Shown: positions 17,988 through 20,705 of the stretch, piece by piece
Layout of the letters: every line of letters starts with the position of its first letter
Numbering within the stretch: the stretch's first letter is position 1
Origin: a virus
Virus record (IMG/VR): IMGVR_UViG_3300030497_000008
Span: 32,001-96,000 of that record
Direction: 5' to 3' (one strand)
Length of the DNA: 64,000 nt
Position numbers and translations under genes: made by a program
Notes under the pieces: generated by a model
Seen by the model: only the letters and a program-made list of their open reading frames with translations
Database searches by the model: none
Told to the model about the DNA's origin: nothing

Positions 17988-18228
17988 CTGTGTCAGAGAT
18001 AAACCTAATAGAAGTGTGTATCAAGATGTAGAAGGTATTTACTATAGAATAGGACTAATTGTATTCATTAAGGTATAAAACATCCTCATCGAGCTCTCAG
18101 ACCCCTTAAAAGTTAAATTAATATGTGTATGCGTTGTGTAAATTCCATCAGAAATAATTATTCAGAATATTTAAAATATTTTTTATAATTACAAGGATTC
18201 TTGTATCAGATTTTGTTATAATAGAGTT

Positions 18229-18410
18229 GTAGGATGTTCCTCCTGCGGTATCCATGTTCTCTCCTCCTCTAACCTCGTGAAGACAAGGATATCATTCGTA
18301 AGTTTAATACGCCTTAGAGCAAATGTGCGGAAACACGTTTTCTCTCCCTTTATTAGAATTTTCTTATACCCTTTGCATGTCAGTACGATATGTAGGGGGT
18401 AACTTTTTAT
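18229..18410 (+). ncRNA. candidate small RNA with C/U-rich (anti-SD-like) loops
   Basis: Follows TGTTATAAT (18214-18222); several hairpins with CCUCCU motifs; ends in a long hairpin plus U-run; no ORF. Confidence 0.5.
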
Positions 18411-18414
18411 ATCA

Positions 18415-18489
18415 TGTGCTTGTAGCTCAGTCGGTAGAGCGCCAGATTGTTAATCTGATGGTCGTTGGTTCGATTCCAACCTAGCACGT
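18415..18489 (+). tRNA. trnN: tRNA-Asn (GTT)
   Basis: Cloverleaf; anticodon loop TTGTTAA; T-loop TTCGATT; CCA not encoded. Confidence 0.85.
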
Positions 18490-18498
18490 TATCATCCT

Positions 18499-18579: not shown

Positions 18580-18652
18580 GGGTTAGTGGCTTGGTTAGCT
18601 CAGAAGCCTTGAAACAGCATCTGCGATGGTTCAATCCCATCTCTACCCACCA
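18580..18652 (+). pseudogene. atypical tRNA-like element (anticodon ambiguous, TTG or TGA)
   Basis: Perfect T-arm GATGG-TTCAATC-CCATC and 3' ACCA; shrunken D-arm, elongated anticodon arm, 1-nt variable loop. Confidence 0.6.
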
Positions 18653-18730: not shown

Positions 18731-18818
18731 GGAGGGTTGGCAGAGTGGATTATTGCAGCGGTCTTGAAAACCGCCGAGGGTAAAACCTCCGTGAGTTCAA
18801 ATCTCACACCCTCCTCCA
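18731..18818 (+). tRNA. trnS: tRNA-Ser (TGA)
   Basis: Class II cloverleaf with long variable arm; loop CTTGAAA; encoded CCA. Confidence 0.93.
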
Positions 18819-18820
18819 TT

Positions 18821-19392
18821 GGGGATATAGTGTAGAGGTAAACACGCAAAAAGGAGCAGTAAAATGCCGACTTGTAAAAAATGTAATGTAGATTTTCCAA
18901 ACTTCATGAAAATAGAAGGTAAACGTCGCAATTTACAAAAACGTCAGTATTGTGTTGATTGCAGTCCTTTTGGTAGACGTAATACAAAACAGATACATTT
19001 AGATAACAACAAAGAGATTGAGTGTACTTGTACCTTATGTGGTAAAGATTATGTATATGCTCGTAGTACAGGATGCACAAAGACTAAATGTAACACTTGT
19101 TGCGTTAGGGTTAATAGACAGAAACTGAAAATCAGAGCGGTAGAGTATAAAGGTGGCGCTTGTCAACGCTGTGGCTATAACAAAAGTTATAGAGCCTTAC
19201 AATTTCACCATCTAGACCCAGAAGAGAAAGATTTTCAGATAGGCGGAAAAGTTATTCTATGGGATAAAATCAAAAAAGAATTAGATAAATGTATTTTACT
19301 ATGCGCTAACTGCCATCTTGAAGAACACGAATCTCTTGATAACCTTAAATTACGTCTACCGTGAAGCACGGGTTCGAACCCCGTTATCCTCG
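18821..19392 (+). pseudogene. trnD: tRNA-Asp (GTC) split by an HNH gene; 5' half 18821-18848, 3' half 19354-19392
   Basis: Acceptor GGGGATA/TATCCTC-G, D-arm GTGT/ACAC, T-arm ACGGG-TTCGAAC-CCCGT, anticodon remnant GTCTA-CCGTG. Confidence 0.85.
18864..19364 (+). CDS. HNH endonuclease with N-terminal zinc fingers
   Basis: KGGACQRCGY..ALQFHHLDP..CILLCANCHLEEH; SD AAGGAG. Confidence 0.92.
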   Translation: MPTCKKCNVDFPNFMKIEGKRRNLQKRQYCVDCSPFGRRNTKQIHLDNNKEIECTCTLCGKDYVYARSTGCTKTKCNTCCVRVNRQKLKIRAVEYKGGACQRCGYNKSYRALQFHHLDPEEKDFQIGGKVILWDKIKKELDKCILLCANCHLEEHESLDNLKLRLP

Positions 19393-19403
19393 TAAACTAT
19401 AAA

Positions 19404-19516
19404 ATCTCAGTCATGTTGAGATAGCTTAGGCGAAACCCTAAGCAAAGCATGTCCGTCCTAAGGAGACATTATAAAAAGAAGGCAAACATGACGTGGCGAG
19501 CTATCCGCAGACACGT
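19404..19516 (+). ncRNA. unassigned pseudoknotted structured RNA
   Basis: Four hairpins plus two exact loop-mediated complementarities (8 and 7 nt). Confidence 0.55.
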
Positions 19517-19538
19517 AAAAGAATAGATAGTGATACAT

Positions 19539-19704: not shown

Positions 19705-19761
19705 TATTAAAACATGACGAGAGTTTTTATTCTCGTCTATACTTATTTGAGGGGGCAATAC

Positions 19762-20598
19762 ATGATAAATGTGAAGGATTTTAGTGGATTAACACCTGCC
19801 GTACAGATACAGAATGCTATCAATGCAGCAGCCTTATCAACATCTTCATCAAAGACCGTACTGCTAGAAGAGAAAGATTATTACCTTGAATCATCTCTTA
19901 CATTGCTAAATGATGTAGAGTTATTGTTTGGCTACCGTTCAAGACTAGTTATTGGTGGTAATTTCCCTGTTTTATTAATAGGGCGAAATGCTTCTGTCAC
20001 AAATCCATTCATAGCTATCGATTCCCCGAATTTTGATTCACTTGTCTTTTCCTTTGACGGTAAGAATAAATATTACAATACATGGAATAAGACAGCTATA
20101 AAAGATGGTGTAGTCGTTAACTGGACAGGTTCTCACAAAGGTGTTGGTATCCGACTCTTTTCTGGAGGAACTGACCATGAGATTTCATTTGTGGATATAT
20201 CGAATGTCAAATTAGTCGGTCTAAGAAAAGGTATTGAGCTAGAGGCTAAAGCGCCAACAACAGGAATGGCGTGGGTAAACGCTAATAGATTCAATAACAT
20301 TTCCATAGAAGACTGCGTAGAAATGATTACGATTGACAGTAGTGAGACAATCCCAAATGAATGTAGTGGTAACATTTTCTCAGGACTTCAACTACAACCA
20401 TCTACAGCAACAACAAAAGTCTTGAAAGTAAGCGGGCAGCATAACCGATTCGATGGTATGCTCTGGGACATCTCGTTAATACCTACAGCTAAATTCGTAG
20501 ATATTACAGCGAACAGTTCCTACACGAAAATAGACTTTAATCGTTCCTTACCTAGTACGAAAGTACAGGATAGTGGGGCGAGCACAATATTACTATAG
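19762..20598 (+). CDS. parallel beta-helix (pectin-lyase-like) protein
   Basis: INVKDF..IQNAINAA..TVLL....YYL N-terminal pattern; Asn/Ile ladders; SD GAGGGGG; late motif at 19700-19709. Confidence 0.75.
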   Translation: MINVKDFSGLTPAVQIQNAINAAALSTSSSKTVLLEEKDYYLESSLTLLNDVELLFGYRSRLVIGGNFPVLLIGRNASVTNPFIAIDSPNFDSLVFSFDGKNKYYNTWNKTAIKDGVVVNWTGSHKGVGIRLFSGGTDHEISFVDISNVKLVGLRKGIELEAKAPTTGMAWVNANRFNNISIEDCVEMITIDSSETIPNECSGNIFSGLQLQPSTATTKVLKVSGQHNRFDGMLWDISLIPTAKFVDITANSSYTKIDFNRSLPSTKVQDSGASTILL

Positions 20599-20618: not shown

Positions 20619-20705
20619 GGAGGGGTACTCAAGCGGTGAAGAGGTTAGTTTGCTAAACTAATAGGTCGAGTAATCGGCGCGAGGGTTCGAATCCCTTCCC
20701 CTCCT
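20619..20705 (+). tRNA. trnS: tRNA-Ser (GCT)
   Basis: Class II cloverleaf; loop TTGCTAA; T-loop TTCGAAT. Confidence 0.9.

Follow-up and report, generated by a model that had tools for sequence, protein, structure and literature searches.

An HNH endonuclease gene has inserted into the anticodon arm of a phage tRNA-Asp gene and disrupted it. This gene probably encodes a free-standing, intronless homing endonuclease that has destroyed its own dispensable tRNA target. The stretch of DNA analyzed, hereafter the window, comprises 64 kb (bases 32001-96000) of the 161,391-bp virus record IMGVR_UViG_3300030497_000008 and contains a terminase-like gene, a tRNA cluster, and portal, head and tail genes. 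Judged by sequence, the carrier is a Bastillevirus-like Bacillus phage, and its closest retrieved relative is Bacillus phage Maceta (MH538296.1; Bastillevirus, Herelleviridae). ARAGORN calls six tRNAs in the window and leaves the insertion site uncalled. The locus, in window coordinates, is organized as follows:

18731-18818, plus strand: intact tRNA-Ser(TGA), 2 nt upstream of the tRNA-Asp 5′ half; candidate left homology flank
18821-18848, plus strand: tRNA-Asp(GTC) 5′ half, positions 1-28 (acceptor 5′ strand, D arm and 2 nt of the anticodon stem)
18849-19353, plus strand: insert, 505 bp in place of tRNA-Asp positions 29-33, as defined by alignment to the empty allele
18849-18863, plus strand: non-coding leader of 15 nt, with the Shine-Dalgarno (SD) sequence GGAG at 18853-18856
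18864-19364, plus strand: HNH endonuclease ORF of 166 aa, with its stop codon supplied by the tRNA 3′ half
19354-19392, plus strand: tRNA-Asp 3′ half, from G34 through the discriminator G; CCA is not encoded here or in the intact alleles
19394-19537, plus strand: conserved non-coding element directly 3′ of tRNA-Asp; candidate right homology flank, predating the insertion

A first-pass annotation of this DNA had described an HNH ORF with its own SD inside tRNA-Asp, ending within the tRNA 3′ half, and both the coordinates and the anatomy hold. The 3′ half contributes 11 nt of the ORF, namely part of an Arg codon, the Leu and Pro codons and the TGA stop. As had also been stated, the acceptor (7 bp), D (4 bp) and T (5 bp) stems of the split tRNA are fully paired. 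Only 2 bp of the anticodon stem are left, and the neighboring features lie only 1-2 nt away from the halves. Alignment to related phages, which the annotation had proposed as a check, recovered the intact tRNA-Asp and the exact junctions. At the corresponding site, Maceta has an intact tRNA-Asp(GTC) with flanks about 95% identical to those of the window; a second locus, L009, also has the empty allele, and over the two the flanks are 95-100% identical. By alignment to Maceta, the only tRNA bases missing from the window are CGGCT, exactly the five that had been predicted, and once they are restored ARAGORN calls a normal tRNA-Asp with a score of 119.8. The site shows a 5-bp deletion relative to the empty allele and no target duplication.

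The state of the halves speaks to the age of the event. Against the intact alleles of Maceta (L001) and L009, the 5′ half is identical at 28/28 positions and the 3′ half at 38/39, the single change lying in the T loop. The adjacent tRNA-Ser(TGA) matches both at 88/88 positions, and the neighboring genes (Trp, Ser, Leu, Tyr and tail spike) are 94-100% identical to those of the intact-allele relatives. Halves and neighbors so similar to their intact counterparts point to a recent insertion, and good preservation of the halves is then no sign of selection. In 16 other Bacillus-phage-type loci, among them Maceta, L009 and records of Bastillevirus, Wphvirus and Caeruleovirus, the core of the anticodon arm is both intact and identical, and it therefore presents a conserved target. 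Two other kinds of insertion were considered and rejected. An integrative element at a tRNA att site does not fit, as there is no duplication restoring the tRNA and the HNH gene is the sole ORF of the insert, hence no integrase. A cassette of HNH gene plus replacement tRNA fails as well, since 18849-19353 contains no tRNA and a tRNA search of the whole phage genome finds no second tRNA-Asp.

The surrounding cluster has features of its own. The tRNA-Gln that follows tRNA-Asn in Maceta and L009 is missing from the window, the window tRNA-Asn (18415-18495) matches these two relatives at only 59/75 positions, and tRNA-Ser(GCT) at 20619-20705 is also divergent; by such comparisons, the window tRNA cluster is a mosaic. 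A tRNA-like gene at 18580-18652 falls below the ARAGORN default threshold and differs at 3/73 bases, one of them within the anticodon loop, from a Maceta copy annotated as tRNA-Leu. A tail spike gene (PHROG 3783; 19714-20598) sits within the tRNA cluster between tRNA-Tyr and tRNA-Ser(GCT), as it does in Maceta. Upstream, a promoter-like site (18161-18189; 10/12) and a terminator-like hairpin of 15 pairs (18367-18401), just 5′ of tRNA-Asn, delimit a region that is kept in Maceta and L009 and is possibly a leader or a small RNA. The element of about 145 nt at 19394-19537 is common to the window, Maceta, L009, Crookii, W.Ph. and L277. Two helices characterize it: one is long-range, 8 bp and invariant, while the other, of 6 bp, crosses the first and shows one compensatory and one one-sided change (one mismatch in two alleles). 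No Rfam family matches this element, a pattern scan for it returned mostly chance matches, and phage Thrax1 has the 3′ third of the element between its tRNA-Asn and tRNA-Asp.

The first-pass annotation further held that the ORF is not borne by an intron, and the searches bear this out. At the locus, no Rfam match at E ≤ 10 was found to a group I (RF00028) or group II domain V/VI (RF00029) core, whereas 8/8 tested bacterial relatives score 63-95 bits as group I introns. A scan of 3,960 single excisions produced no tRNA with a GTC anticodon at the ARAGORN default threshold, and none rebuilds tRNA-Asp because five exon bases are gone from the DNA. Lowering the threshold gives four marginal, pseudogene-level calls, and another 188 calls at the default threshold (Ser(TGA) in those listed) resemble fortuitous stems inside a high-scoring shell. 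Group I and group II introns are both rejected: the insert has no such core and just 15 non-coding nucleotides, and positions 29-33 are deleted. Nor do the junctions suit group I splicing, for which U and G are expected where the 5′ exon has a final A and the insert a final C. An unrecognized intron, or an excision at the RNA level, that restores tRNA-Asp would be in keeping with relatives that are intron-borne at tRNA anticodon loops, and certain phage intron groups are under-represented in covariance models (PMC11878797). Set against the absent exon bases and the failed excisions, however, such a restoration is very improbable. The likeness to tmRNA proposed in the first-pass annotation stands for topology, in that an acceptor and T arm close a long insert replacing the anticodon arm, but not for the features of a tmRNA. 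There is no Rfam or ARAGORN match to tmRNA at the locus, the ORF has its own SD and ATG where a tmRNA has a resume codon and no SD, G3-C70 and a discriminator G replace the alanine identity set of G3-U70 and A73, and the long helix that closes the insert in tmRNA is lacking.

The encoded protein matches Pfam PF01844 at 25.4 bits (cut-off 21.4) and PHROG 2255 over its whole length (E = 1.5e-54). A Cys-rich N-terminal part is followed by an McrA-like HNH domain, with four CxxC pairs preceding or opening the domain and a fifth closing it. Residues H115/H116, C147/C150 and H151 are invariant or nearly so in the family, while the middle Asn position of the HNH motif is taken by Lys142, a Lys in nearly all members, including 36/36 of those borne by introns. 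The AlphaFold model is confident (pLDDT 89), and Foldseek returns weak matches only, the top ones being HNH-type nucleases (Cap5 and T4 EndoVII, for example), with no match at E ≤ 0.001. From its family, we infer that the protein is a nuclease. Versions that are 97-98% identical and have an intact ORF exist as two further NCBI proteins, one of them from Bacillus phage Vinny.

To place the gene within its family, about 250 PHROG 2255 loci were fetched, 236 of them distinct; these are the best-scoring 80 matches per collection and do not represent a census. Outside the bacterial genome collection, where loci are mostly from phages and metagenomes, a same-strand tRNA directly adjoins the gene at 101/156 distinct loci, most often tRNA-Asn(GTT), tRNA-Ile or tRNA-Glu (best 80 matches per collection). 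Within the same sampling, a tRNA starts no more than 120 nt after the HNH domain at 58 of the 107 loci with a same-strand tRNA, against 20.6 expected from random anchors. In bacterial genomes, including Patescibacteria, Nitrospira, Acidobacteriota and others, ARAGORN places the gene in an intron of about 550 nt within a tRNA anticodon loop at 36/79 loci (again the best 80 per collection), and the exons inspected read tRNA-Asn(GTT). Such an intron-borne position in an anticodon loop is the classical homing setting. These bacterial group I introns (L193-L261) belong to the same family as the window gene, with about 50-57% identity over the HNH domain, and share its anticodon-arm neighborhood. 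There, however, a ribozyme restores the tRNA, whereas the window has no ribozyme and has lost five exon bases.

A detector of orphan tRNA halves complementary to each other was positive at 20/236 family loci, including the window, against 0.9 when flanks were swapped between loci, and the paired halves of the window are therefore not due to chance. The 20 positives divide into 14 introns and 6 intron-free loci, the window among the latter, and reading by eye added two further intron-free split loci. A matched control HNH family was sought, and the genome holds no HNH_3 gene; within-locus and flank-swap nulls take the place of this control. The search for other cases of an HNH gene within a tRNA, suggested in the first-pass annotation, thus yields at least seven more loci at which a tRNA is split without an intron; a replacement tRNA is present at four of them. 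The intron-free arrangements are:

HNH gene alone between the halves: window, L073, L031 and L181
HNH gene and a spare tRNA between the halves: L120 (Asn), L138 (Arg), L146 (Ile) and L264 (Ile)
Intact tRNA, then the gene, then an orphan 3′ half: Acinetobacter phage Aci05 (L002)
Orphan 5′ half, then the gene, then an intact tRNA: L075 and L168

In L073, the stop codon of the HNH gene likewise comes from the anticodon arm. Junctions vary across the family, from about 20-33 on the 5′ side and about 25-44 on the 3′ side, and many members lie beside a tRNA and not inside it. On the loci compared, the family is repeatedly placed at tRNA anticodon arms, and PHROG 2255 tracks tRNA genes. A tree of the HNH domain (80 columns) leaves 137/225 forks open and is too poorly resolved, so it was not used for the order of events or the direction of transfer. 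Several loci show further variations. At L017 (2260-2345) and L121 (2030-2110), the end of the HNH gene runs into a tRNA-Ile(GAT)-like gene left uncalled by ARAGORN, which has a reduced D arm and a long variable region. At L110, a group II intron domain match (2102-2202; 41.5 bits) lies shortly after the HNH gene, which is followed by an orphan tRNA 3′ half. Other HNH genes, possibly unrelated to this family, lie between intact tRNAs in the tRNA clusters of Bacillus phages JBP901 (L269:1157-1663) and Thrax1 (L340:883-1044).

Among the matches listed, the closest homologue is P0002 (71% identity), encoded within an array of tRNA genes on a B. thuringiensis contig of 492 kb. The stop codon of P0002 overlaps 16 nt that are identical to positions 41-56, in the 3′ half, of the tRNA-Asp of the same array, a match with a rough chance of 6e-7, and plasmid BTB_502p contains the matching site without the P0002 gene. 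P0002 is thus a copy that persists without any tRNA shell. As the window gene and P0002 each end on a tRNA-Asp 3′ half of the type of their own replicon, the sub-lineage appears tied to tRNA-Asp, and these two 71%-identical copies are the best evidence for that link. A long upstream hairpin is predicted to mask the start of P0002 (L021:2940-3010), as in T4 homing-endonuclease genes. The base at tRNA position 37 (window 19357; loop end GTC-TA) is a T in phage- or plasmid-type tRNA-Asp genes (L001, L008-L011 and L021), and another tRNA-Asp in L021 has the loop end GTC-AC. T37 could let the nuclease distinguish mobile-element from host-type alleles, or could evade anticodon nucleases.

[quoted passage not shown] The insertion into tRNA-Asp could instead reflect a tolerated illegitimate recombination, with a nuclease that cuts elsewhere and spreads by co-conversion, or that is no longer mobile. 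Such a nuclease would then act on a different tRNA gene in the cluster, on a generic tRNA motif in the manner of T4 SegB, or on competitor DNA. SegB recognizes a T-loop motif found in many tRNA genes, the family lies mostly beside tRNA-Asn or tRNA-Ile among the matches listed, the B. thuringiensis homologue is about 300 bp from intact tRNA-Asp copies, and the divergent tRNA-Asn of the window is what a resistant target allele might look like. Against this, the window gene and P0002 both terminate on tRNA-Asp, and the intron-borne members are located inside the anticodon loop itself. We consider a target elsewhere unlikely. A nuclease aimed at intact tRNA alleles, as the first-pass annotation had suggested, is the best inference from the empty allele and the family loci.

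For homing at tRNA-Asp, the locus offers an HNH domain with conserved catalytic and Zn residues, an empty allele in relatives, and a position outside any intron or intein. In the course of events that we propose, the HNH gene, from a family that targets tRNA genes, entered the tRNA-Asp anticodon arm with the loss of 5 bp, and it would be transcribed jointly with the tRNAs of the cluster. When a carrier and a relative infect the same cell, the protein would, by analogy, cleave or nick the relative's intact tRNA-Asp gene close to the anticodon arm. Repair on the carrier genome would then copy the insert, with the halves and neighboring genes acting as homology arms, while the carrier itself would be immune since the insertion removes the target site. 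The tRNA could be lost because a phage tRNA-Asp is dispensable, the host tRNA decoding Asp, and the absence of the Maceta tRNA-Gln fits with cluster tRNAs being dispensable. The halves would be recent remnants; the 3′ half would have a further reason to persist, since the final codons and the stop of the ORF come from it.

The first-pass annotation had suggested that the split tRNA acts at the RNA level. RNase P, RNase Z and CCA addition would release an RNA of about 575 nt whose tRNA cap stabilizes or controls the nuclease mRNA, or whose release frees tRNA-Ser and the downstream non-coding element. The elements for processing are all intact in the three paired stems, the neighbors begin just 1-2 nt from the halves, and the trimmed RNA is predicted to have its acceptor paired (p about 1). 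Moreover, engineered tRNA scaffolds with anticodon-arm inserts are recognized by cellular factors (PMC3753655), and in T4 the segB mRNA and the tRNAs share a precursor, whose maturation is proposed to cut the mRNA (PMC2330249). However, shuffled inserts close the shell equally well (29/30 at p ≥ 0.6), and the insert is therefore without sign of adaptation. With flanks included, the acceptor probability falls to about 0.005, though the intact allele misfolds in the same model too, which makes this comparison a weak one. The engineered scaffolds were designed to keep a hairpin at the insertion, whereas the window retains 2 bp of anticodon stem, and the near-identity of the halves is expected from recency, given neighbors at 94-100%. 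The closest homologue keeps a 16-nt remnant, and other relatives keep one half or a nested intact tRNA, so the shell is not a requirement of the family.

The proposed helix between the SD and the 3′ half also fails. Its energy is -3.1 kcal/mol, a value equaled or bettered by 131/517 other 11-mers of the RNA, and the predicted probability of the pairing is near 0. Processing of the shell as a by-product may occur, though we would sooner expect that it does not; processing with a selected function, and with it a functional tRNA-capped mRNA, has a low probability. It is similarly doubtful that the split tRNA-Asp is still processed into a natural tRNA-scaffolded, CCA-ended nuclease mRNA in a way that makes the insertion tolerable by freeing tRNA-Ser and the downstream RNA. 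If true, the tRNA-shell state would be an intermediate between free-standing tRNA-targeting HNH genes and intron-borne ones.

A different control of translation is suggested by the folding model, in which the SD and start codon pair with 18943-18971 inside the ORF:

18958-18971, plus strand: predicted anti-SD inside the ORF, pairing with 18849-18860 (pair probabilities 0.8-1.0)

Only 11/300 synonymous recodings occlude the SD as strongly, and occlusion of the ribosome-binding site (RBS) is a known control of phage homing genes (PMC2988022). Overall stability is nevertheless unremarkable, being matched or exceeded by 183/300 synonymous recodings, and the anti-SD lies across conserved Ser-Pro-Phe codons, which leaves the predicted occlusion as a lead only. 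An internal promoter for the HNH gene gave no signal (7 sigma-70-like sites against 11.9 expected).

Among known systems, T4 SegB is a free-standing GIY-YIG homing endonuclease in a tRNA cluster (PMC2330249, PMC13096335). Its gene is transcribed together with the cluster and shows nearly 100% inheritance, the enzyme cutting tRNA genes in relatives, and the region is non-essential (PMC2330249). Like segB, the window gene is an intronless nuclease gene in a phage tRNA operon that is absent from relatives, with a predicted RBS-occluding structure, and it is by analogy with SegB, which drives inheritance of its region, that its cleavage of tRNA genes is proposed. In contrast, SegB is of the GIY-YIG class, lies between intact tRNA genes and reads the T-loop, whereas the window gene is of the HNH class (PHROG 2255), lies inside a tRNA gene and destroys that gene. 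The F-Tfl H-N-H homing endonucleases of T5 reside in a tRNA cluster (PMC2330249, discussion; PMC10644984). By description, these share with the window gene the HNH class, the free-standing state and the phage tRNA cluster, but are not described there as lying inside a tRNA gene. The split nrdA of Aeh1 is still functional as two polypeptides. There, the HNH gene mobE is embedded in nrdA without an intron, as cited in PMC2988022, and, as far as that citation goes, it resembles the window gene as an intronless HNH gene within a host gene under RBS hairpin control; the window differs in that its target is an RNA gene whose decoding function is lost. Engineered tRNA scaffolds, in which a hairpin is kept at the anticodon-arm insertion (PMC3753655), have the same acceptor/T-arm closing topology as the window locus. 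In essence, the window gene is akin to SegB and T5 F-Tfl in its working and to the HNH genes of tRNA group I introns in its family. A literature search conducted mostly outside subscription journals turned up no report of HNH genes inserted without an intron into phage tRNA genes, and the main text of PMC7162821 mentions neither introns nor nested tRNAs.

The examined examples are mostly metagenomic, and the value of this case lies in its tractability. Cultured B. thuringiensis phages appear to carry both alleles, with Vinny as carrier of the protein and the Maceta record as the empty allele, and the junction is known to the base. Annotation is also affected because standard tools miss split tRNA genes. 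More broadly, the loci point to an HNH family specialized on tRNA anticodon arms, in which the damage to the tRNA is met in three ways: by a self-splicing intron in bacteria, by a spare tRNA in many phages, and by plain loss in the window phage. This bears on the origin of mobile introns from a free nuclease and a ribozyme, and on why phage tRNA clusters are so mosaic.
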